This document shows positions 12,636-41,815 of a DNA stretch of 64,000 bases, piece after piece. Below the pieces are notes generated by a model that was not told where the DNA came from, did no database searches, and worked only from the letters and a program-made list of their open reading frames with translations. The translations under genes were made by a program, and so were the position numbers. Source of the DNA: Gammaproteobacteria bacterium (GTDB lineage: Bacteria > Pseudomonadota > Gammaproteobacteria > VBWC01); assembly GCA_023266115.1 (NCBI GenBank), contig JAHFRU010000001.1, forward strand, positions 271,905 through 335,904, written 5' to 3'. Each line of letters opens with the position of its first letter. Position 1 is the stretch's first letter.

Positions 12636-12700
12636 TGATCCCCTCACCCCGACTCTCTCCCTGTGGGAGAGGGGGGAAGACAGGGTGGGGCGCAACCAGT
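12636..12700. repeat. REP-like palindromic element (cccctcacccc...ctctccctgtgggagagggg)
   Basis: An inverted repeat ctctccc/gggagag sits within a C-tract/G-tract palindrome. The same module recurs at 20745-20785, 22785-22825 and 38265-38320. Confidence 0.6.
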
Positions 12701-12821: not shown

Positions 12822-12974
12822 CTAGGGAAGCTCTGATGTGTCGTCATTCCGGGCGGAGCGTAGCGGAGACCCGGAATCCAGCGCTTTCGAAACAGGGTGT
12901 TACTGGATTCCCGCGAAGTTCATGCCCGGAGGGTACGGGAATGACAACAAAATGATTAATCAGAGCTTCCCTAG
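12822..12974. mobile_element. Miniature inverted-repeat element, family 1 (~150 bp, 16-bp perfect TIR CTAGGGAAGCTCTGAT / ATCAGAGCTTCCCTAG)
   Basis: Perfect terminal inverted repeats are visible. The internal hairpin modules are gtcattccgggcgg...cccggaatcc and ggattcccgcgaag...gggaatgac. A second copy lies at 37442-37594 in the opposite orientation. Confidence 0.75.
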
Positions 12975-13140
12975 AAGTTTGTTCCCTCACCCCGACCCTA
13001 CCCCCAGGGAAATCCTAAGGGAGAGGGGGAACGCGCGTAGGATGGGTGCAGCCGCAGGCGCAACCCATCAGAACACTGGATTCCTGCTTGTGCAGGCACG
13101 ACTAGCAACGGCAGAACTAAAACGATAAACAGCTGACCCG

Positions 13141-16164: not shown

Positions 16165-16226
16165 CAGATTGTCCACGGCCGGGAAAGCCCGGGCCTTGAA
16201 CGACGATTCGGTGGTATTACCCGCCT

Positions 16227-16328
16227 GTCATTTCGAGCCTGGTCCCGAGCGCAGCGAGGGAGCACGCGAGAAATCCGTGTCTCGAACGAGCGTGAAAGAC
16301 ACGGATTTCTCCCTGCGGTCGAAATGAC
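16227..16328. repeat. Dispersed palindromic repeat, family 3 (GTCATTTCGAGCC...GGTCGAAATGAC)
   Basis: Outer inverted repeat gtcatttcgagcc / ggtcgaaatgac with an inner hairpin gagaaatccgtgtc...gacacggatttctc. A second copy lies at 20929-21040 in the same orientation. Confidence 0.7.
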
Positions 16329-20574: not shown

Positions 20575-20690
20575 AGACCCTCGTCATTCCCGCGAACTCG
20601 GGAATCCGGATTTTTTTCCAAACCAACAAACTCTGGATTCCGGGTCGGCGCTGCGCGCCGCCCGGAATGACAGTTTCGAGTTCTGATGGG
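20575..20690. repeat. Hairpin-module repeat (gtcattcccgcgaa..gggaatcc / ggattccgg...cccggaatgac)
   Basis: It shares its hairpin modules with MITE families 1 and 2. It lies in a 576-bp intergenic region packed with repeats. Confidence 0.6.
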
Positions 20691-20928
20691 TTATGCCTGT
20701 GGCTCCACCCATCCCGCAAATCGCGGATCCTGCTTTTTACTTCCTCTCCCTCAGGGAGAGGGTTGGGGTGAGGGGGGGGATTCATCGTTGCGGTAAATTC
20801 GCCTCGTTCCCGGCAGTATCGCCATGCATTGCCCTCGACCGCCGCTCGCGGCATTGCGCTACCCCGCCGTGCCGGTTGTCACAACCGCGCGGATCGTCGA
20901 GAATCACCTCAGGAACCTCTGATTAAGT

Positions 20929-21040
20929 GTCATTTCGAGCCCTGTCCCGAGCATCGCGATGGAGCTGGCGAGAAATCCGGGTGGTAAACACTTCGAGGCG
21001 ATTCCACCACATCAGGATTTTTCCCTGCGGTCGAAATGAC
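20929..21040. repeat. Dispersed palindromic repeat, family 3, second copy
   Basis: Same outer inverted repeat as 16227-16328 (gtcatttcgagccctgtcccgagc...ccctgcggtcgaaatgac). The central segment differs. Confidence 0.7.
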
Positions 21041-25233: not shown

Positions 25234-26475
25234 ATGCCTGCCCAATCCCTGATTACTCGCTTTCTGCGCCCGAGATTGATCGAAGCGCTTGCAGACACGC
25301 CGGTCGTTCTGGTACATGGTCCTCGCCAGTGCGGTAAGTCGACGCTGGTGCAAACCGTCAAGGGGTATACCTACATCACCTTCGACGATGAGGTGCAACT
25401 TGCGGCGGTGAAGGCTGACCCGGTAGGTTTTGTGGCGGATTTACCGGACAGGGTGATTCTTGACGAGGTCCAGCGCGCACCGGGGCTGTTCGCTACGCTG
25501 AAGGCGGCAGTGGACCGCGATCGTCGGCCGGGGCGTTTCATTTTGACTGGTTCAGCCAATGTGCTGCTAGCACCGAAATTGTCGGATTCGCTCGCCGGAC
25601 GGATGGAGTTATTGCGGCTTCACCCCCTGGCGCAGTGTGAGGTCGCGGGGGGCATGCCCCATTTTCTCGATGTGCTTTTCGCGGGTGGGTTCAAGGCGCG
25701 GAAGTACGACCGCCTGGGTGCGGAGTTGGCGGAGCGCATCGTCGCAGGTGGATATCCGGCAGCGTTGGCACGCGGCTCCGGCCGTCGCCGGCGTGAATGG
25801 TATCGGGCTTACATCGAAGCACTGGTGCAACGCGATGTACGGGAGTTGGCGCGCATCAGCGCATTGGATGCATTGCCACGGTTGCTGCAACTCGCTGCGG
25901 GCCAGTCGGCACGATTGCTGAACGTCAGCGAACTAGCCGCGCCGTTTCAATTGAGCCGGCCGACCATTCGCGACTATGTGACGCTGCTGGAACGCATATT
26001 TGTGATCGAGATGCTCCCGCCGTGGCACAGCAACCGGCTGAGTCGATTGGTGAAGACTCCAAAATTGCACATGGGCGATACGGGTCTTATAGCGAGTCTG
26101 CTTGGCGTAGATGCAGCAGCGCTAGCGAAGGATCGTGCGTTGCTCGGCCAGTTGTTGGAGACATTCGTATTTCAGGAGCTGCGGCGGCAAGCAAGTTGGC
26201 ATGAGGACGCCATCGGTTTCCATCATTTCCGTGACAAGGACGGCTACGAGGTTGACATTGTACTGGAACGCGAGGGGCGGGACATCGCGGGAGTTGAGAT
26301 CAAGGCGGCGGCGACGACAGTCACGGAGTCGGATTTCCGCGGGTTGCGAAAACTCAAGGGCACAAGCGGCGCGCGGTTTGTCGCTGGTGTCGTGTTATAC
26401 GATGGAGAGAGCGCTGTACGGTTCGCAGATGATTTATTCGCAGTGCCAATCAAGGCGCTCTGGGGTATGAAATGA
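25234..26475 (+). CDS. AAA+ ATPase with DUF4143 domain (COG1373)
   Basis: Walker A motif LVHGPRQCGKST and Walker B motif RVILDEVQ. The C-terminal part is DUF4143-like. Confidence 0.85.
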   Translation: MPAQSLITRFLRPRLIEALADTPVVLVHGPRQCGKSTLVQTVKGYTYITFDDEVQLAAVKADPVGFVADLPDRVILDEVQRAPGLFATLKAAVDRDRRPGRFILTGSANVLLAPKLSDSLAGRMELLRLHPLAQCEVAGGMPHFLDVLFAGGFKARKYDRLGAELAERIVAGGYPAALARGSGRRRREWYRAYIEALVQRDVRELARISALDALPRLLQLAAGQSARLLNVSELAAPFQLSRPTIRDYVTLLERIFVIEMLPPWHSNRLSRLVKTPKLHMGDTGLIASLLGVDAAALAKDRALLGQLLETFVFQELRRQASWHEDAIGFHHFRDKDGYEVDIVLEREGRDIAGVEIKAAATTVTESDFRGLRKLKGTSGARFVAGVVLYDGESAVRFADDLFAVPIKALWGMK

Positions 26476-27374: not shown

Positions 27375-27380
27375 CGGAGG

Positions 27381-27530
27381 GCTGGATTCTCGCGAAGCAT
27401 ATACCCCCGAGGGTGCGGGAGTGACAAAGACTGGATTCCTCGGCGGCTGTTCCCGACGCCGCCCTACCTCCTGCATCCATGCAGTCGCGCTTTCGTGGGA
27501 ATGACAGAAGGGTGGATTCCCGCCCGACAG
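27381..27530. repeat. Partial copy of MITE family 2 core (ggattcctcggcggctgttcccgacgccgcc...ctgcatccatgcagtcgcgctttcgtgggaatgaca)
   Basis: It matches the core of the elements at 28571-28776 and 33896-34126 but lacks their terminal inverted repeats. Confidence 0.6.
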
Positions 27531-28570: not shown

Positions 28571-28776
28571 CTATCGGGAATTACCTATAAGCGTGACACG
28601 GCCAACGGCTGTCATTCCCGCGAAAGCGCGACTGCATGGATGCAGGAGGGGCGGCGTCGGGAACAGCCGCCGAGGAATCCAGCGCCATTCACAACCGCTG
28701 GATTCCGGGTCTTCGCTGTGCTCCGCCCGGAATGACGGTCGCGATGTGTTGTCACGTCATTTGGTAATTCTCAATA
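28571..28776. mobile_element. Miniature inverted-repeat element, family 2 (~205 bp; TIR CTATCGGGAATTACC ... GGTAATTCTCAATAG)
   Basis: Terminal inverted repeats are present. The internal modules are gtcattcccgcgaaagcg, the near-palindrome ctgcatggatgcag and ggattccgggtc...cccggaatgac. An inverted copy with about 90% identity lies at 33896-34126. Confidence 0.75.
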
Positions 28777-28821
28777 GTTGTACGCGTTCATTTCTAAAAA
28801 ATAACACGGAGGTTACACCGA

Positions 28822-29129
28822 TGAAATTACCTCAGGTCGCACTGGTCGCCGCTATCTCGCTTTTCGCCACCGGGAATAGTTGGGCGCAAAACAATTGGTC
28901 GAATAGCAATAACACCGGCAACTTCGGCGGAAGCTTCGGTAACAGCTCGTTTTCGCAGACCAGCAACAATATGACCATTTCGCAGCGTACTGGCAGTGGT
29001 GCCGATTCGTTCTGCCAGTTTTTCAGCTATTCATTCGGCTTGACGCAAATTATTCAAATCATCCAGGGAAATTCCATGACACAGGTCTTCGGTTCCAACC
29101 TTGACCCGGTGACCGATCCCTGCCTGTAA
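28822..29129 (+). CDS. Small secreted Asn/Ser/Gly-rich protein (hypothetical)
   Basis: A GGAGG RBS lies 7 nt upstream. The signal peptide is MKLPQVALVAAISLFATGNSWA. The mature part is a low-complexity N/S/G/Q-rich region (NNWSNSNNTGNFGGSFGNSSFSQTSNN) with two Cys. A rho-independent terminator follows at 29201-29227. Confidence 0.6.
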
Positions 29130-29200
29130 AGCCTTGCAGCAGTCCAGAGAAAAACGGGGCCCAGGAGAATGGGAGCAGCGTTTTTTGCATAACCCACCAA

Positions 29201-29227
29201 GTGTGCGAAGCACACAAACTGTTTTTT
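29201..29227 (+). terminator. Rho-independent terminator (GTGTGCgaaGCACAC followed by a T-tract)
   Basis: A 6-bp GC-rich stem with a 3-nt loop is followed by AAACTGTTTTTT. It lies immediately downstream of the small secreted protein gene. Confidence 0.6.
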
Positions 29228-29389
29228 AATGGGTGCCTAGCGGCAAGGTCGGTGGGTTAGGCGCGTAGAACGCGCCTAACCCACCGACTATTCGCAATGG
29301 CGTTGCCGAGGGTGCGTGCGCGATTGCATCCGGCGTAATGTGCTTTGCTTATTGCGCCTTGCGGCGTGGTTTGTTCATACGCTATGGGT

Positions 29390-31375
29390 TCAGCGCGCAA
29401 ATACCACGATGCCGTTGGCCGGTATGGTGATGCGTGCCGAGGCCGGCAGGCCGTGCAGCGGGGCGCCGTCGGCATGCACACCGCTGCCGTTGCCTGCCAC
29501 CCAGGGATTGACCCAGTGGTCGTAGACGTCGGCGTTGAAGACCTCGCGCCAGTTACCCGCGCCGGGAAAGCCGAGCGTGTAGTCATGCCAGGTGGTTTCG
29601 GCGAGGCTGGCGACGATGACCACATCCTGGCCCACGTCAGGCACCCAGCGATGGAACGCGAGTATGCGGTGTGCATTATGGACATGGAAGATGTGGATGC
29701 CGCTGGCGGTCAGCGCCGGTAACGAACGCCGCAACGCGATCAGTTCGCGCGTGTAGCGCAGAAAATCCCTCATGTGACGGTCGGTGTCGAGTCCGCTCCA
29801 CCCGATGCGGTCCGCGCTTTCCGGATCATCGTGCCACGGTTTGTCTTCGAGAAATTCCTGGCCCATGAACAGATGCGGGATGCCGGCGGCGGTCAGCACC
29901 AGGCCAAGCGCAACGCGCGAGCGGCTGCGCGCGTACCACGAGCGCGCGTCGGCGCCGTCAGCGAGGCGCGCAATGCGGGGCTTGCGGCCCTGATAGACGA
30001 GGTCGTGATCCTCAATGGCCTGCACCGCGCGCCAGTGATCGCGCACGGCCGGCGAGCGCAGTTGCGCGGCGACGGCGTCCATGTCGACGACGGCATCGCG
30101 CCCGCTGGCAGCCTGCGCCACGGCTCCGCGCAGCGCGGTACGCAGGCCGTCGCCGGACGCGGCGTCAAAACCCGCGCCGCCCGTCGCGGCGGGTTCGACG
30201 ACGGCGCCATCCACCGGCCAGTGCTCGGCGATCTGGATGGCCTCCGGTTTGACGTAGCGGCAGGTGTCGGTCAGCCATTGGCAGAAGCGCCAGCCGTGCT
30301 CGCCGCCTTCGTTTCGAATGACGCTGACCTCGTCGTAGCGGAAGCCGTCGCAATGGCATTCGGTGAGGAACATGACGGCGTTGTCGATCAGATACTGTTT
30401 GACGTCGTTGTTCCAGTAGGCGTAGACGAGGCCGCCGGCCCAGCCGCGATCGGTGAAGTAGAGGCTGTCGTTGTGATTACCGTAGGGCTTGCGATCCAGG
30501 AAGTAGATGCTGCGATCGCCGAAGTCGCCGCCGGCGTGGTTATACACGACATCCATCAACACGGCGATGCCGTAGACATGGCACATATCGACCAGCATGC
30601 GGAACTGACCGGCGGTGCCGGTGATATCCTTGCGCTGGTACGGCGCGAGTCCCGGCGCCGCGTCGTGCAGGCGCGCGTTGACCATGGTCAGGTAATCATT
30701 CAGCGCCGAATCGTCGTCGTGCACGCCGTAGTCGGTTTCCGGCGAGAACGGATCGACGTTGTTGTAGCCCAGGCTGAACTGGGTTGGGAATTCACTGATC
30801 GGCAGCGGCTGGATAGCGGCGATGCCAAGCGCCTTGAGATAGGGCAGTTTGGCGACGACATCGAGAAACGTGCCGTGGCGACGGCCGGGCGGGATATACC
30901 AGGTGCCGATGTGTAACTGGTAGATGATCAGTTCATGAAACGCCGGCGGGCGCCAACCCTGGTCATGCCACGGAAACGCGGCAGGATCGACCAGCAGGCA
31001 CTGACACTCGGGCCACGTGGGTGTTTCGGTGAGATCACGGGCATACGGATCGCGCTTGAGTCCCTCGGTACCACCGACCGGGCCGGTGACATGGAGCATA
31101 TAACGATCACCGGCCTTGAGCCCCGGCACGAAACCGGCCCGGCGGCCGTTCGCAGTCGCGACCAGTCTGGCCTGGCGATGATGCAGCCAGGTGCCGGCGG
31201 ACTTGCGATAATCCCACAGCACGCGCACCTCGCGCGCCGCCGGCGCCCACACCTGGAACGTCGCACCCGCGCCCGAGGGCAACAGCTTGCCGCCCATCGG
31301 CGTGGCGTCGGTAATATGATCGAGCGTGAGAAAATCGTCCTGCCCGGTCGCCGGAGTGGTGGTGAGTTCGTGCAT
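29390..31375 (-). CDS. Glycoside hydrolase family 13 enzyme with N-terminal CBM48/E-set domain (TreZ or isoamylase-like alpha-amylase family)
   Basis: GH13 region I reads DVVYNHAG, region II reads GFRYDEVS, and region III is AEHW-type. The N-terminal part is beta-sandwich-like (ATFQVWAPAAREVRVLWDY). Confidence 0.85.
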   Translation of the reverse strand: MHELTTTPATGQDDFLTLDHITDATPMGGKLLPSGAGATFQVWAPAAREVRVLWDYRKSAGTWLHHRQARLVATANGRRAGFVPGLKAGDRYMLHVTGPVGGTEGLKRDPYARDLTETPTWPECQCLLVDPAAFPWHDQGWRPPAFHELIIYQLHIGTWYIPPGRRHGTFLDVVAKLPYLKALGIAAIQPLPISEFPTQFSLGYNNVDPFSPETDYGVHDDDSALNDYLTMVNARLHDAAPGLAPYQRKDITGTAGQFRMLVDMCHVYGIAVLMDVVYNHAGGDFGDRSIYFLDRKPYGNHNDSLYFTDRGWAGGLVYAYWNNDVKQYLIDNAVMFLTECHCDGFRYDEVSVIRNEGGEHGWRFCQWLTDTCRYVKPEAIQIAEHWPVDGAVVEPAATGGAGFDAASGDGLRTALRGAVAQAASGRDAVVDMDAVAAQLRSPAVRDHWRAVQAIEDHDLVYQGRKPRIARLADGADARSWYARSRSRVALGLVLTAAGIPHLFMGQEFLEDKPWHDDPESADRIGWSGLDTDRHMRDFLRYTRELIALRRSLPALTASGIHIFHVHNAHRILAFHRWVPDVGQDVVIVASLAETTWHDYTLGFPGAGNWREVFNADVYDHWVNPWVAGNGSGVHADGAPLHGLPASARITIPANGIVVFAR

Positions 31376-31493
31376 TGGAAGCTCCTTTTCGCTGGCCGGC
31401 GATCCTGCCGATATGATTTCCGGAATGCCGCACCGACGTCCGCGGCGTCCATTGCTGAAGAAGTATAAACGTCCGCCCCGGCAACGAGCAGGT

Positions 31494-32608
31494 TTACTTC
31501 AGCAGCACCCAGGTAAAATGCACGCCGAAATCTGGGGTGTTATCGAAATGAAGGAAGTTCTCCGTGACGCCAAACCCGACGATACCGATGGCGGTATCCC
31601 AATTGAGGCCCGCCGTGATCTGGATGGCCGTGTCACTTAGCTCGGAATCGACGTTGGTGCGGTACGGGTGTTCGGCCAGCCGCGTCTGCACGAATGAACG
31701 GGTGTTGGCCAGACCCTTGAACCGGTGCAGCCAGCTGATGTTCACGAATGGCAGATTCGGCGGCTCAAAGCCGGTCTGTCGGAACTTGCCGGGAAACACC
31801 GCACCGAAATTGACTATCCATGCATCCCGGGTGTAGCGCCGTTCAATCGTCATCTGGTAACCGAAATCCCAACTGCCGGTCGACAGGAATTCGTCCTCGT
31901 CCATCAGCGGGATCTTCAGCCCGATTTCCAGATTGCCGTACCAGTCGCGTACCAGCTCCGGCAGTGCGTAACGCAGGAACAGGCTGGGATCGCTCAGGCC
32001 GCCGCTCGACGGGCGATCGAGCAGGACGACACCCTGTCCGTTACCCCGGCCGAGCACCACTTGTGCCCGGTTGTTTTCGACGTAGCCCCGTTCGCCCTGG
32101 TCGAGGCCGGCGGCATCGTGGAAACTGTATAGATGGTCTGATCGAGTAACTGGCCGCCGTAGTGTATGTAACTGACGCCCAGGCCAATGTCGATGCGATC
32201 CGTCAGTCCCCGGTGCACGAAGAACTCGAGCAGGCGGAATTCGCCGTCGATGTAATAGGCCTGCTCCTTTGAAAGACCCAGTATGAAGGCGGCGTCGGCG
32301 GCGTCCAGCGCGCGCCGCGTGTTGCCGCGCGTCTGTTTCAGATAGTCCTCGACCTCCGGGCTGACCTGAAAATTGTTGACGATGGAGTAATGCATTTCAA
32401 TCATGGAACGCCCTTTGCCGAAGGGCGCGGCGGGCGTCGGCGCAAAACCGAGTACCAGAAAGTTGGGGAAGGTCTAGTCCCGGACGCGGAACGGCGCGCC
32501 GAGTGAGTCTTCAATGAGCGGAACCGGTTCGCCGTTGGCAATGCCGGCGCCGGCAAACAGGCAGCTCAAACCGATTAACCCGAAGACTTTCCATTGTCTT
32601 CCAATCAA
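31494..32608 (-). pseudogene. Disrupted outer-membrane beta-barrel protein gene (DUF3187-like) with an in-frame TAG after the signal peptide and a frameshift near 32112-32125
   Basis: A TTG start with a GGGAGA RBS precedes the signal peptide KVFGLIGLSCLFAGAGIANG. An in-frame TAG follows at 32478-32480. The frame then continues through MIEMHYSIVNNF...LLDQTIYTV. The protein-like sequence resumes in another frame (FHDAAGLDQGERGYVENNRAQVVLGRGNGQ...) and runs on to the aromatic C-terminus ...FTWVLLK. Confidence 0.55.
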
Positions 32609-32827
32609 CAGTCAGTCTCCCAACGATCGCTGAAGCCAGGTCGTATGGATGATTATAGATGATCTGTTGGCGAGGTATTGTCGCGGGCCTGTGGGTAATG
32701 GGTCGAATGAACGGCGTGAAACTTGATGCGGATCCCATACTCCGCCACCGGTAGCAGATCACCAGGCCGGGGCTCGTTTGATACGCCGCATAGAGGCAGG
32801 GACCCGGGGCGTCAACGGGGCCTGATG

Positions 32828-33124
32828 CTATTTAAACCAGGCGATTCGCTCGGTCATGCACTCGTGTCCGCCCATCTTAAGGTCACGGCAAACCTGTGGC
32901 CGCTGCTCGTAGATCTTGCATTTCATGGTATTGCGGTCCAGGGCCGCGCACCAGCCGTCATCCAGCCACGCCATGCTTCTGCCGCCCCACTGGTCGGTCG
33001 CAATAAAATGCCCGGGCACGCCGGTGTCGGAAATCAGCATGACTTCCAAACGGCAACAGCAGGCCTCGCAGTTGGCACAGCTCACGTCGGTTTCGGGCGG
33101 GGTAGTTACGTCTATGCTCATCAA
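32828..33124 (-). CDS. YkgJ-family cysteine-cluster protein (UPF0153, putative Fe-S/zinc-binding)
   Basis: The N-terminal cluster is CANCEACCC and a later cluster is C..C...C (WCAALDRNTMKCKIYEQRPQVC). The product is 98 aa. Confidence 0.8.
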   Translation of the reverse strand: MMSIDVTTPPETDVSCANCEACCCRLEVMLISDTGVPGHFIATDQWGGRSMAWLDDGWCAALDRNTMKCKIYEQRPQVCRDLKMGGHECMTERIAWFK

Positions 33125-33289
33125 TCACTCTTCATTTTCGATACAAGCCAGCCGGGGTCGAATCACCGCTCGCGCTAATAAAAAAACGACGGCGTCGGGC
33201 CTGCGTTACACTAGCGCATTACTTCGAATCATGGCCTATTCCGCTTTCCCTGGCCACTTTTCCCGCACCATAAACCGAATAGAAACCCC

Positions 33290-33832
33290 ATGGCCCTTAA
33301 AGCAACCATATACAAAGCCGAGCTCGGCATCGCCGACATAGACCGGCACTATTACCACGATCACACGCTGACCATCGCCCAACATCCGTCGGAAACCGAC
33401 GAGCGTTTGATGGTGCGCTTACTCGCTTTTGCGCTGCACGCCCATGAGCACCTTACCTTCGGCAAGGGGCTGAGCATAGAGGACGAACCGGATGTGTGGC
33501 TAAAGGATCTCACCGGCGCAATCGACCTGTGGATAGACGTCGGCCAGTCCGACGAGAAGCGGATACGCAAGGCCTGCGGTCGCGCGAAGCACGTCGTTAT
33601 CTACAGCTACGGCCGTGGCGCGGACGTGTGGTGGGAGAAAAACCGCAGCGCGCTGGCCCGCGCCGGGAATCTCAGTGTGTTTAGTCTGCCGACCGACGCC
33701 AGCGCGTCGCTCGCCAAGCTGGCGCAGCGCACCATGCATTTGCAATGCACCGTCCAGGACGGGCAGGTGTGGCTGGCGGATAACGATGACCGGATCGAGG
33801 TGGAGATGAAGGCGCTGTTAACCGGGCAGTAA
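33290..33832 (+). CDS. yaeQ: YaeQ-family protein
   Basis: MALKATIYKAELGIADIDRHYYHDHTLTIAQHPSETDERLMVRLLAFAL... matches the conserved YaeQ N-terminus. The product is 180 aa. Confidence 0.9.
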   Translation: MALKATIYKAELGIADIDRHYYHDHTLTIAQHPSETDERLMVRLLAFALHAHEHLTFGKGLSIEDEPDVWLKDLTGAIDLWIDVGQSDEKRIRKACGRAKHVVIYSYGRGADVWWEKNRSALARAGNLSVFSLPTDASASLAKLAQRTMHLQCTVQDGQVWLADNDDRIEVEMKALLTGQ

Positions 33833-33895
33833 GATGGGCGTTCTGTCGAGAATAGTGTCATACCCGCGTAGGCGGGTATCCAATAACCTGCGAAT

Positions 33896-34126
33896 TATTG
33901 AGAATTACCAAATGACGTGACAACACATCGCGACCGTCATTCCGGGCCCCTGCCTTCGCAGGGGCAGGCTGCGCGCAGCGAAGACCCGGAATACAGCGGT
34001 TGTGAATGGCACTGGATTCCTCGGCGGCTATTCCCGACGCCGCCCTGCCTCCTGCATCCATGCAGTCGCGCTTTCACGGGAATGACAACCGTTGGCCGTG
34101 TCACGCTTATAGGTAATTCTCGATAG
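33896..34126. mobile_element. Miniature inverted-repeat element, family 2, inverted copy (with a ~30-bp internal insertion)
   Basis: Its reverse complement aligns with 28571-28776 at about 90% identity, with the same TIRs (TATTGAGAATTACC ... GGTAATTCTCGATAG). It carries an extra gcgcagcctgcccctgcgaaggcaggggc hairpin. Confidence 0.75.
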
Positions 34127-34252
34127 AATACGGCCTGAAATTCCTGGATTCCCGTTTCCACGGGAATGACGTATACGTGGGGCAGCCGCGGGTTGCGCCC
34201 GTTGTCGTACGTGGTTTGCTAAACATAGACCGGATTAAACGGGAGTCACAAC

Positions 34253-34854: not shown

Positions 34855-35334
34855 CTATGCCGGTTGCGCCTGCCGCATCCAGGACAAGTACGCAGCAACC
34901 TCCGTCGTATTCTCCAGCGGTGACCACGGCGCGAAGTCGCGCTCGGTGGTGGGTATGTACGCGCCCTCCTTCACTTCCAGCGCGACGGTGCCGGATTGCC
35001 TGCATACGTAGGCGTGCCAGGTGTTCGGCGGGATCTCGACGGCGCGGGTGGTGGTGCGCGACATCGGTGTGCGCTGGATGACGTGACCGGCATCATTGAA
35101 GATCAGCAGATCGATCTGCCCTTCCAGCAAGATAAATAATTCCCACTTGTGTGATTCAGGGTGGCGATGCGGACGCATGTAGGTAGGCGGTTCGGTGGCA
35201 ATGAACAGGCGCTGTACCGCGGAGTCCAGGGTTTCATGCACATTCAGATGGGCGCGCAAACGCGCCGCCTGCGTGGCTTGGCCGGCGAGTGTGTTCAGGT
35301 TGTCTGCTGTTATGGTTTTGATCATATGCGTCAA
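34855..35334 (-). CDS. WbuC-family cupin-fold metalloprotein
   Basis: The 159-aa product has cupin motifs (PTYMRPHRHPESHKWELFILLEGQIDLLIF...NTWHAY). Confidence 0.7.
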   Translation of the reverse strand: MTHMIKTITADNLNTLAGQATQAARLRAHLNVHETLDSAVQRLFIATEPPTYMRPHRHPESHKWELFILLEGQIDLLIFNDAGHVIQRTPMSRTTTRAVEIPPNTWHAYVCRQSGTVALEVKEGAYIPTTERDFAPWSPLENTTEVAAYLSWMRQAQPA

Positions 35335-36052
35335 GTCGAGGTTGGAGATTAGTAGTTTGTTATCTTGAACAAGTCAGGCGCAGAGAACAACGATTTCTGT
35401 TCAGCAAGGAGGAGTGTCTTGTCGCGGTGCTCCTGGTCACCATGTTCGCGGCGCCCGTTCCCGACGCCGCTCTCGGTCCTCGCGCCCGGCAGGACGACCC
35501 CTCCGTCCCCGGCCCGGGCGTAGGCGGAAAGGACAGGATGTCAGATGCATGGGCCTTTGATCATGATCGCGTGACCCGGCCGGTGCACATCTGGCGGGGA
35601 GGCGGATCACTATGTGCCGCTGCTGCCGGCGCAACCGTTGTTCGCTATACGGAACAAGCCAGGCAAGCCTCTATTCCGGCGAAGGCCGCATGCTGCTGTT
35701 CCCGCACTGGAACGACATCATCGCGCCGTTTGCGGACCCGGTACCGAGCGCCTGAGCAGGTCAGCGGCAGGCGGGCGTGGAATCGCGTGGGTCGTCTCCC
35801 GGGCCTCGGTGTTCACAGGGGCGGGCAGCGCGCAGTGCCAGAATCCCGTAGCAGCGGGTCGCGGAGACCGGGTTGCCGCGTTCACGGGATTGACGGAGTG
35901 GGACGTGCGCGAACTTTGTGTCCGCCGGGAGCAGGAACCACACTAATGCCTTCGCCATTTCGGGCGACGCGCAGCGCGGAACCGGAATCCAGTGGTGGAT
36001 AGCGCTGCTTCAGGATAGATGTCGAGGCTCATGTTGCCGGGTTGCCGCCCCG

Positions 36053-36767: not shown

Positions 36768-37445
36768 ATGAGACCCTGGGAATTGCTCGATACCGCGCCC
36801 GTGCCCGGCGAAGGCGTTGAGTTGCGGCTGTACCGGCGCGGTGATGAGTTCGCGATTAATATTGCCGGCCGTGGCGAACTGATGAACAGCCGGGTCCATG
36901 GCTCCGAGGATGCGTTGGCCGAGCAGACCTGCGCCAGGCTGAAGGGTTGCGTGAATCCGCGCTTGCTGATCGGCGGGCTGGGCATGGGGTTTACGCTGGC
37001 GGCGGCGCTGCGGCACGTCGGTGATCAGGCGCAGGTAGTCGTGGCGGAACTGGTGCCGGCCGTGGTGACGTGGAACCGGGGGCCGTTGGGGGAGTGTGCC
37101 GGCCATCCGTTGCTGGACTCGCGCGTGACGGTGCACGAGGGCGATGTCGCCCGCGTGATCAAGGGCGGGCAGCAGATCTATGATGCGATTTTACTGGACG
37201 TGGATAACGGCCCCGAGGGCCTCACGCGCACGGAAAACGACTGGCTGTATAACTTCAGCGGCTTGAGCGCGGCCTGCGCGGCGCTGCGCCCCGGGGGTGT
37301 GCTGGCCGTGTGGTCGGCTGGTCCCGACCGGGATTTTGTGGAACGGCTGCGCAAGGTGGGGTTCGACGTCGATGAGATACGCGTGCGTGCGCATGGCGGT
37401 AAGGGCGCGCGGCACGTTATCTGGTTCGCCAGGCGTGGGGGTTAA
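36768..37445 (+). CDS. Spermidine-synthase-like class I SAM-dependent methyltransferase fold protein
   Basis: Motifs are LLIGGLGMGFTLAAAL, AILLDVDNGP and GVLAVWSAGPD. The ATG at 36768 (MRPWELL) is the preferred start. Confidence 0.7.
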   Translation: MRPWELLDTAPVPGEGVELRLYRRGDEFAINIAGRGELMNSRVHGSEDALAEQTCARLKGCVNPRLLIGGLGMGFTLAAALRHVGDQAQVVVAELVPAVVTWNRGPLGECAGHPLLDSRVTVHEGDVARVIKGGQQIYDAILLDVDNGPEGLTRTENDWLYNFSGLSAACAALRPGGVLAVWSAGPDRDFVERLRKVGFDVDEIRVRAHGGKGARHVIWFARRGG

Positions 37446-37594
37446 GGAAGCTCTGATTAATCATTTTGTTGTCATTCCCGTACCCTCCGGGCATAAACTT
37501 CGCGGGAATCCAGTAACACCCTGTTTCGAAAGCTCTGGATTCCGGGTCTCCGCTACGCTCCGCCCGGAATGACGACACATCAGAGCTTCCTTAA
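37442..37594. mobile_element. Miniature inverted-repeat element, family 1, second copy (TIR TTAAGGAAGCTCTGAT / ATCAGAGCTTCCTTAA)
   Basis: It is near-identical to 12822-12974 in reverse orientation and has perfect 16-bp TIRs. Confidence 0.75.
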
Positions 37595-41240: not shown

Positions 41241-41550
41241 ACGGTAATCCTGCAAAGGGCACGCGCTCTGGCCCCGTTTCTTCGGAATAAGCCGGAAACA
41301 CGGCGTCAGGCGGCGGCGTGTCAAGAAACCCCCTTATTCTTGACGGAACTAACCCATAACGGCATAGTCTGAATTGGTGTTCGCGGGTCTTGATCACGTC
41401 AACACGGATAAGAAGCGCGGACAATTTGCAGTTTGCCGTATTGTTGTTTGTCGGTTAGTAGCGGAATACCCTCTGTGGTGTCCTCCTGTCATCCTTCCTT
41501 CATGACTCTCACGCAGACTTTTTTGTAATTAGTTCAAGGAATATTTTTTA

Positions 41551-41754
41551 ATGAAGACTGGTATTGTAAAGTGGTTTGACGCTTCAAAAGGCTTTGGTTT
41601 TATTTCTCCCGAAGATGGTGACAAGGATGTGTTTGTACATCACTCCGCTATCACCGGCGATGGATACAAAAGCCTCGATGAAGGTCAGCGGGTATGCTTC
41701 GACGTCCAGAACGGCGCGAAAGGCCTGGCCGCTGCCAATGTTGTCGCCGTCTAA
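41551..41754 (+). CDS. cspA: Cold-shock protein (CspA family)
   Basis: [34 protein letters not shown] carries the RNP motifs of cold-shock domains. A long 5' UTR lies upstream. Confidence 0.95.
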
Positions 41755-41785
41755 AGCGCGCCAACATTAGCAAGGTGTAGTACGG

Positions 41786-41815
41786 AACCCCGCCAATGGC
41801 GGGGTTTCTTTTTTG
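41786..41815 (+). terminator. Rho-independent terminator (AACCCCGCCaatgGCGGGGTT followed by TCTTTTTT)
   Basis: An 8-9-bp GC-rich stem with a 4-nt loop and a T-tract lies 30 nt after the cspA stop. Confidence 0.85.

Follow-up and report, generated by a model that had tools for sequence, protein, structure and literature searches.

Positions 28571 to 34126 of the DNA analyzed here, a 64,000-nt stretch of the chromosome of a Gammaproteobacteria bacterium (contig JAHFRU010000001.1 of assembly GCA_023266115.1; the whole stretch is called the window below), hold a block of genes bracketed by two inverted copies of a short repeat. We find that the two copies, A (28574..28774, plus strand) and B (33898..34123, minus strand), are MITEs (miniature inverted-repeat transposable elements) and that they very probably represent two independent, recent simple insertions of a single nonautonomous family, recognizable by its terminal inverted repeats (TIRs), into native chromosome after the split from a sister lineage. 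The mobile units run from TIR to TIR, insert at YTAR, and duplicate the TA. Judging from alignment with the sister lineage, the insertions were preceded by the block itself and by its present gene order and orientation, and also by the frameshift in the pseudogene that it contains. A previous, sequence-only reading of this DNA had proposed that such a pair might mediate inversion of the intervening DNA or mark a composite mobilizable unit. The comparisons described below are a useful negative in this respect: a pair resembling a composite transposon or an invertible segment appears to reflect no more than two recent MITE insertions, unrelated to each other, into older chromosomal DNA that was already in decay.

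The limits of both copies were set from flanks resolved by empty sites in the sister lineage. So delimited, the body of copy A is 201 nt long, with TIRs at 28574-28598 (left) and 28750-28774 (right) and the duplicated TA at 28572-28573 and 28775-28776. Copy B, inverted with respect to A, has a body of 226 nt, with its right TIR at 33898-33922, its left TIR at 34099-34123, and the duplicated TA at 33896-33897 and 34124-34125. The outermost C and G, counted in the earlier reading as part of the TIRs, belong to the target flank, and the TA is target duplication. The TIRs are imperfect and approximately 25 to 27 nt long (in the repeat search, the arms of copy B extended over 27 nt at 78%), and TYGRGAATTACC and CGTGACA are their conserved blocks. 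In the window, the TIR motif is found four times, against 0.21 occurrences expected by chance. Between the TIRs of copy A lie two modules, M1 (28611-28682, GTCATTCC...GGAATCCAG) and M2 (28698-28736, CTGGATTCC...GGAATGAC); in copy B, M2 contains an additional nested hairpin, CCCCTGCCTTCGCAGGGG. When A is compared with the reverse complement of B, 194 of the 201 aligned positions are identical (96.5%, or 86% if the gap columns of two indels, of 3 nt and 22 nt, are counted), and the longest exact stretch, of 50 nt, is found at the right end. The existence of an inverted pair at these positions was correctly recognized from the sequence, and the description of each copy as a MITE with its own TIRs has gained weight from the precise empty sites, the TA duplication, and further copies at unrelated loci in a second genome. 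Neither copy is coding (the only open reading frames [ORFs] are those that overlap the repeat), and both are shorter than ca. 500 bp; small size, lack of coding capacity, TIRs, target duplication, and dispersed copies are all found together, as is generic for bacterial MITEs.

The evidence that carries the main conclusion comes from the sister lineage, which was reached via members of the YaeQ and GH13 clusters. It comprises the metagenome-assembled genome (MAG) Gammaproteobacteria bacterium X1_MaxBin.010 (L026, GCA_006218035.1) and four other assemblies (L027, ENA ERZ27284376; L028 and L031, Logan SRR8863439; L029, Logan SRR8438314; and L030, ENA ERZ27284380), with ca. 95% nucleotide identity to the window. 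A more distant relative, L016 (Logan SRR25621603; L021 is from the same organism), has ca. 80% nucleotide identity. At site A, L026 reads GCGTTTAC-TA-GTTGTACG (TTTAC-TA-GTTG, a CTAG target), where the window reads GCGTTTAC-TA-(201 nt)-TA-GTTGTACG, with flanks that align cleanly on both sides. At site B, four independent assemblies (GCA_006218035.1, ERZ27284376, SRR8863439, and SRR8438314, corresponding to L026-L029) read CGGCTAAT-TA-GCATACG (in context CTAAT-TA-GCATACG, a TTAG target), where the window reads GAAT-TA-(226 nt)-TA-GAATACG. Nothing other than the MITE bodies and one TA is missing from the sister-lineage sites, and the check for target-site duplications suggested in the earlier reading thus has a clear result, in that TA is duplicated at both ends of each copy. 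Each copy thus landed in an intergenic TA (CTAG at A and TTAG at B) and duplicated it in the process.

From 22.9 to 45 kb, the window is collinear with L026-L030 on the same strand at 78 to 97% identity (93 to 97% around the MITE-flanked block), and indels are the sole differences. The gene order common to the window and the sister lineage runs Rdx, AhpC, a cyclic nucleotide monophosphate (cNMP)-binding protein (minus), a secreted protein (plus), GH13 (minus), a DUF3187 remnant (minus), ykgJ (minus), yaeQ (plus), and an outer membrane protein (OMP; plus) onward. Because sites A and B are both precisely empty in the sister lineage, two independent simple insertions after the lineages split are indicated; and because the block is present in the same order and orientation in this MITE-free sister, the block came first and each MITE arrived separately. 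Within approximately 20 kb, the two ca. 95%-identical genomes differ by the presence or absence of at least five MITEs, which indicates that the MITE system has been active recently. Empty sites that are precise to the base also provide a clean TA/YTAR insertion signature in an uncultured lineage of the Gammaproteobacteria.

The same filled and empty sites could be read in the opposite direction, with ancestral MITEs having been precisely excised or deleted in the lineage of X1_MaxBin.010. If the 2-bp TA repeats recombined with each other, a single TA might in principle be regenerated, and the difference between A and B (3.5% plus two indels) could be read as a sign of age. However, this scenario requires a footprint-free loss at three sites, namely, A, B, and the site of a MITE of a second family (family 2) at 37445-37591. 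That copy is absent from both L026 and L016, which have an empty TTAA where TA is duplicated in the window. Excision by cut-and-paste elements of the Tc1/mariner type usually leaves footprints. L016, the outgroup, also lacks MITE B (its yaeQ-OMP spacer measures 50 bp, versus 421 bp in the window), as well as having the empty family-2 site. Moreover, the differences between A and B are module-level indels of a kind that is also seen among other family members, which fits descent from two different donor copies. We consider ancestral loss highly improbable.

Several points nonetheless weigh against the conclusion that A and B are two independent recent insertions. All of the sequences compared are metagenome assemblies. 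The L016 contig ends inside the secreted-protein gene and so gives no outgroup state for site A; a search with the cNMP-binding protein for site A in the L016 organism returned only a nonsyntenic homolog at 71% (L025), and neither the YaeQ homologs at 75% identity (L017-L020) nor the GH13 homolog at 69% identity (L022-L024) provided useful synteny. A 2-bp TA duplication is formally indistinguishable from a TA that belongs to the element terminus. Copy counts cover 64 kb of this genome and ca. 42 kb of the sister MAG only. A scan of 185,579 species for the TIRs recovered MITE copies in one MAG plus chance hits, and no autonomous element or transposase with matching TIRs. Finally, the effects on promoters and RNA discussed below are possible ones, predicted from a consensus match and from folding.

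The block itself has the content that was reported from the sequence alone. It begins with a gene for a small secreted protein of 102 aa, rich in N, S, and G and with a signal peptide (28821..29129, plus strand; orthologs in L016 and L026), followed by a gene for a GH13 1,4-alpha-glucan branching-enzyme-like protein of 661 aa with CBM48, Alpha-amylase, and Alpha-amylase_C domains (29390..31375, minus strand), a DUF3187 OMP pseudogene (31494..32608, minus strand), a gene for a YkgJ-type CxxCxxCC zinc/iron-binding protein (32828..33121, minus strand), and yaeQ (33290..33832, plus strand). AhpC and the cNMP-binding regulator adjoin it on the left and a small beta-barrel OMP on the right. The window as a whole is ordinary chromosome, with genes for the pyruvate dehydrogenase complex, Rnf, argininosuccinate synthase, and GGDEF/EAL proteins, and in the composition profile, the GC content of the block falls within the range of its surroundings, with nothing to mark the block as foreign.

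Could the MITEs nevertheless have served as the ends of a 5.55-kb composite transposon that delivered the secreted-protein gene, GH13, DUF3187, ykgJ, and yaeQ together? The arrangement would suit a transposase in principle, since a left TIR forms each outer end of the pair, the two being inverted relative to one another and differing by a single mismatch in the first 35 nt, and IS630-associated composite transposons are known, at least to go by the title of a work cited in PMC2170065. However, the five MITE-free sister assemblies have the entire block at this very locus with its order and orientation unchanged, and ykgJ, yaeQ, the OMP gene, and the synteny to the right are conserved even in L016. 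Furthermore, TA is duplicated around each of the two MITEs separately, rather than at the outer ends only. As an account of the origin of the block, composite transposition is refuted, and we attach almost no probability to it; the notion of a composite mobilizable unit thus finds no support in these data.

A second functional possibility is that the pair drives RecA-dependent flipping of 28775-33897, so that both orientations coexist in the population. The arms (201 aligned nt, 96.5% identity, and a 50-nt exact stretch) would suffice for occasional homologous recombination, and one Logan contig, L002, does not fix the orientation, as it breaks inside both right TIRs. L002 corresponds exactly to window positions 28750-33922 and stops 27 nt inside each right TIR; we considered these ends as evidence for inversion and rejected them, as they are an ordinary repeat-induced break in k-mer assembly. 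Against flipping, an ENA contig that spans the block (ERZ27280116:k141_1185012) is identical to the window and is oriented as in the MITE-free relatives, that is, in the ancestral orientation; a 442-kb NCBI MAG contig carries the same proteins and mostly the same neighboring genes, although its orientation is not shown. At the assembly level, no alternative junction was recovered, and a single orientation was found in all spanning assemblies. In addition, the insertions are recent and the arms are short. Inversion mediated by the pair is accordingly very unlikely, and the inversion polymorphism among relatives that the sequence-only reading had envisaged is not seen, since the gene order is the same in the sister-lineage assemblies. 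If A and B arose as two separate insertions, their inverted arrangement would simply be a by-product of two random events. The pair may still provide a substrate for future RecA-mediated inversion or for transposition from its outer ends, neither of which has left a trace.

The decaying gene within the block had been taken as a sign that the bracketed DNA is under relaxed selection. The lesions themselves are real. Relative to an intact 366-aa ortholog in L021, codon 43 of the DUF3187 gene (32476-32474) has changed from CAC to TAG, a nonsense mutation, and 2 nt have been inserted near 32131, shifting the frame. This +2 frameshift, however, is common to the window and to MITE-free L026, so that decay of this gene predates the MITE bracket and is unrelated to it, and the proposed connection with relaxed selection on the bracketed interval finds no support. 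In the sister lineage, the gene also lacks the segments corresponding to 31518-31825 and 32269-32627. Decay is also evident outside the bracket. A gene for an alpha/beta-hydrolase, intact (615 aa) in L016, survives as remnants at 35550-35740, and the sister lineage has undergone a 454-bp deletion (window 35268-35721) between GCGCCG direct repeats, truncating a DUF6016 gene. Gene decay is thus general in this neighborhood and is not confined to the MITE interval.

The block has also been rearranged in the past. In the organism represented by L016 and L021, the secreted-protein gene abuts ykgJ, and the order MoeA, GH13, a 233-aa gene, and DUF3187 is found elsewhere. In the window, the GH13 (29389-31488) and DUF3187 (31505-32627) segments are permuted and abut within 16 bp, and moeA and the 233-aa gene are absent. 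This permutation could have arisen through a circular intermediate or through duplication followed by deletion. Its breakpoints, at ca. 29150 and ca. 32835, lie approximately 375 and 1,060 bp from the nearest MITE ends, and the rearranged state is common to the window and the MITE-free sister, from which we conclude that the MITEs did not cause the rearrangement. More generally, the element occupies multiple unrelated intergenic sites and is not located at the breakpoints seen here, leaving the earlier suggestion of an association with rearrangement unsupported.

The MITE family to which A and B belong (family 1) was sought more widely by scanning a 21-nt TIR pattern, GAATTACCWAWWRRCGTGACA, over one genome for each of the 185,579 species mentioned above. 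Apart from approximately five chance hits, all matches fell in X1_MaxBin.010; among metagenome contigs, the same pattern yielded one weak copy (L012) in addition to chance hits. With an nhmmer profile, at least six further copies of 126 to 337 nt were recovered at unrelated sites in X1_MaxBin.010 (L007, L008, and L010); these lie within 21.6 kb of loci that were chosen by TIR match, whereas the window holds two copies in 64 kb. The X1_MaxBin.010 copies have the same two distinguishable ends and differ in their interiors. Immediately outside all 13 of the genuine family-1 ends examined, a pyrimidine is followed by TA (Y-TA). A BLAST search of copy B against PLSDB plasmids gave no match. In one place in X1_MaxBin.010 (L008, 3981-4449), two family-1 copies are joined head to head, one lacking its right TIR and the other its left. 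Because the junction falls where a GGAATGAC module ends, module ends may have been the site of recombination or of a nested insertion; the left copy is itself inserted directly beside a GGGAACCTCTGAT TIR of the other family. With its mosaic interiors, this is apparently an undescribed and recently very active MITE family of an uncultured gammaproteobacterial lineage.

How such an element would be mobilized can be approached through its target. TA is the insertion site of IS630-family elements and is duplicated on insertion, CTAG being the preferred target of IS630 itself (PMC2170065). Since a 2-bp TA duplication is characteristic of one insertion sequence (IS) family, and since CTAG is also the target at site A, the element is, somewhat more probably than otherwise, mobilized in trans by an IS630/Tc1-mariner-type DDE transposase encoded elsewhere. 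The window ORFs that were scanned or annotated (a set that leaves out a few small ORFs outside 23 to 44 kb) yielded no transposase gene and likewise neither a RAYT nor a GIY-YIG gene, and the cognate transposase was not encountered in the searches described above.

The interiors of the family-1 elements consist of hairpin modules that conform to GTCATTCC(C/G)G-loop-C(G/C)GGAATCCAG, and hairpins of the type ATTCCSG...CSGGAAT occur at least 10 times in the window, versus ca. 0.1 times expected. The neisserial repeat dRS3 is defined as ATTCCC-N8-GGGAAT (PMC1797815), and exact matches to it are found at 20586-20605 and 34148-34167, versus 0.00 expected. The first of these is contained in an NTS-type hairpin, CGTCATTCCCGCGAACTCGGGAATCCGG (20582..20609, plus strand), with one mismatch to the published 28-nt Neisseria Transformation Sequence (NTS), CGTCATTCCCGCGMAVGCGGGAATCYRG, and a free M2 module (20633-20671) is located beside it. 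The second forms part of a free-standing dRS3/NTS-like hairpin, CGTCATTCCCGTGGAAACGGGAATCCAG (34144..34171, minus strand), that is present in both lineages. Within the MITEs, the modules retain the stem and its flanks and have loops longer than that of dRS3. What had been described as a third, partial copy of the MITE at ca. 27381-27530 belongs here, too. The repeat exists (27377..27505, plus strand; 94.8% identity over 77 nt), but rather than a truncated MITE, it is a TIR-less pair of modules, one M3-like (CTGGATTCTCGC...GGGAGTGAC) and one M1. The pair has GRARTGAC direct repeats at its borders and is missing from the sister lineage.

Given these interiors, an alternative is that the whole unit is a REP/REPIN-type element spread through single-stranded hairpin intermediates by a RAYT (Y1 HUH) or by a GIY-YIG system of the Ssn type. 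NTS-like "Ssn-related motifs" are widespread outside Neisseria and are cleaved by GIY-YIG single-stranded DNA (ssDNA) nucleases (PMC11893778), and the neisserial repeats, which SsnA cleaves (PMC11893778), have been treated as REPINs linked to a Group 2 RAYT (bioRxiv 10.1101/2021.07.10.451892). The exact dRS3 matches at two window sites and the single-mismatch NTS at one would suit such a system, as would the fact that the two modules at 27377-27505, which lack TIRs, constitute an indel of their own with repeats at its borders. Two coding sequences may be of the relevant kind. Approximately 90 bp downstream of a truncated family-1 copy in X1_MaxBin.010, a 46-aa ORF (MSHYRRADTAGGTYFFTVASYRRQPILCDE..., L010 2173-2313) resembles the RAYT N terminus NF047646 (E value of 2e-6; 27.7 bits, below the NCBIfam cutoff of 80), which is consistent with a RAYT link without proving it; a Pfam scan of this ORF returned nothing. 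Similarly, a GIY-YIG gene near the syntenic region in L030, at the contig edge, is consistent with an Ssn link and proves none.

The ends of the elements argue otherwise. Both A and B have TIRs of 25 to 27 nt that are unrelated to the modules, they are inserted at YTAR with TA duplicated, and it is whole TIR-to-TIR units that are absent at the empty sites. Elements mobilized by HUH transposases are not known to duplicate their target. A further point comes from family 2, a second and unrelated TIR pair, (A/G)GGAAGCTCTGAT, whose copies enclose modules M2 and M3. One copy in the window, of 147 nt with TIR AGGAAGCTCTGAT (37445..37591, minus strand), has TA on both sides (37443-37444 and 37592-37593); its partner (12825-12971), 24.5 kb away, inverted, and 97% identical to it, sits in a C-TA...TA-G (CTAG) context. 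The family-2 M2 is 88% identical to that of copy A. The sister lineage has family-2 insertions of its own, one between the secreted-protein gene and GH13 and one between the Ank and Rdx genes. The same modules therefore occur free-standing and within both TIR families, and the finding that a second, unrelated TIR pair encloses them with the same TA duplication argues that the TIRs, and not the modules, define the mobile unit. A REPIN-type origin of the whole unit is, in our estimation, unlikely.

Read as TIR-defined insertions, copies A and B are new members of the class of TA-duplicating MITEs, resembling IS630-derived and Correia elements in behavior and not in sequence. Correia and RUP MITEs have TA termini, and RUP has been linked to IS630-Spn1 (PMC2229807). 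Like IS630/Tc1-mariner MITEs such as RUP of Streptococcus pneumoniae, the window elements are approximately 100 to 340 nt long, noncoding, TIR bounded, intergenic, and multicopy, and they share with such elements the insertion into and duplication of TA, the CTAG/YTAR context, and insertion polymorphism between close relatives (PMC2170065 and PMC2229807). Unlike these, no cognate IS630-family transposase or full-length IS with TYGRGAATTACC...CGTGACA TIRs was found among the window ORFs or in the TIR scans, and the interior of the window family is a variable mosaic of hairpin modules rather than the remnant of a deleted IS. With the Correia elements (CREE/NEMIS), the family has in common a TA at both termini, TA duplication, TIRs of ca. 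25 nt (PMC2229807 and PMC1797815), size classes determined by internal blocks, a location just upstream of genes, a long hairpin RNA, an outward promoter-like hexamer pair that uses the terminus and flank, and the lack of a known transposase. However, the window TIR (TATCGGGAATTACCTATAAGCGTGACA) and the Correia TIR (TATAGTGGATTAACAAAAATCAGGACAA), compared by eye only, have no convincing similarity, the host is an uncultured gammaproteobacterium, and the interior is composed of modules that resemble dRS3/NTS, a repeat class of its own in Neisseria. The likeness to Correia elements is thus functional and architectural only.

Two of these shared traits may have consequences for the neighboring genes. 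The right TIR of copy A, together with the TA and the flank, forms a sigma-70-like site (TTGTCA-18 nt-AATAGT, 28749..28778, plus strand) by consensus match. The site is directed outward, and the ATG of the gene for the secreted protein lies 43 nt downstream of it; the insertion may in this way have provided that gene with a promoter. The equivalent site of copy B (33923-33894, minus strand) points antisense into the 3' end of yaeQ. In addition, RNA that reads through a copy would be expected to fold into a long hairpin that the TIRs close, much as has been described for Correia elements; the predicted folds of the two copies have energies of -102 and -104 kcal/mol, with z scores of approximately -6.

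The modules in turn invite comparison with the neisserial NIME (dRS3 plus RS)/NTS repeats, with which they share an ATTCC(C/G)G...C(G/C)GGAAT stem with GTC and CAG flanks, clustering in intergenic mosaics, and variation between close relatives. They differ from these in that most window modules have loops of 18 to 40 nt, versus 8 nt, and in that two MITE families of the window lineage also enclose them between their TIRs, which is the single unusual feature of the system. One speculative and, on present evidence, rather doubtful possibility is that hairpins of the dRS3/NTS type are interchangeable cargo between the TIRs of at least two TA-duplicating MITE families, in a NIME-like system. Were this so, DDE-type transposition would actively disperse hairpins that are the sites of a second system, one acting on ssDNA, be it an Ssn nuclease or a RAYT. 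Such a two-layer symbiosis of mobile repeats would have no described counterpart in Neisseria, in which CREE and NIME belong to distinct classes of repeats, and, if the packaging of hairpins is functional, it would link the spread of MITEs by DDE-type transposition to Ssn nuclease/RAYT hairpin biology outside Neisseria.

Other repeats and features of the region can be noted briefly. A third type of hairpin repeat (TGTCATTTCGAGCC...GCGAGAAATCC) is found at 16226-16280 and 20928-20982, with a GGAACCTCTGAT TIR-like motif ahead of the latter at 20912. In L030 (reverse complement, 1-101), this same repeat encodes the C-terminal tail of the GIY-YIG protein (...CHFEPCPERSEGS...), an arrangement that recalls the Ssn-related motifs flanking ssnA genes. 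A REP-like hairpin of a different family (GGATGGGTGCAGCC...) is present at 13040-13074 and 20680-20714, and PLP-type repeats (CCCCTCACCCC...GGGAGAGG) are present at 12640-12672 and 20743-20775. Inside the block, 29187-29300 contains a perfect GC-rich palindrome, GGTGGGTTAGGCGCG-TAGAA-CGCGCCTAACCCACC, together with a related half-site. A scan of the window against Rfam at gathering thresholds returned nothing on the repeats and a single element, the cspA thermoregulator (41427-41812; 108 bits), upstream of a cold-shock protein gene. Finally, further strain-level indels distinguish the two lineages in gene content as well: an RVT_1 reverse-transcriptase gene (290 aa) of the sister lineage (L026 289-1161 and L030 15812-16684) is absent from the window, and an AAA_14/DUF4143 ATPase gene located between the Ank and Rdx genes in the window (25234-26475) is absent from the sister lineage.

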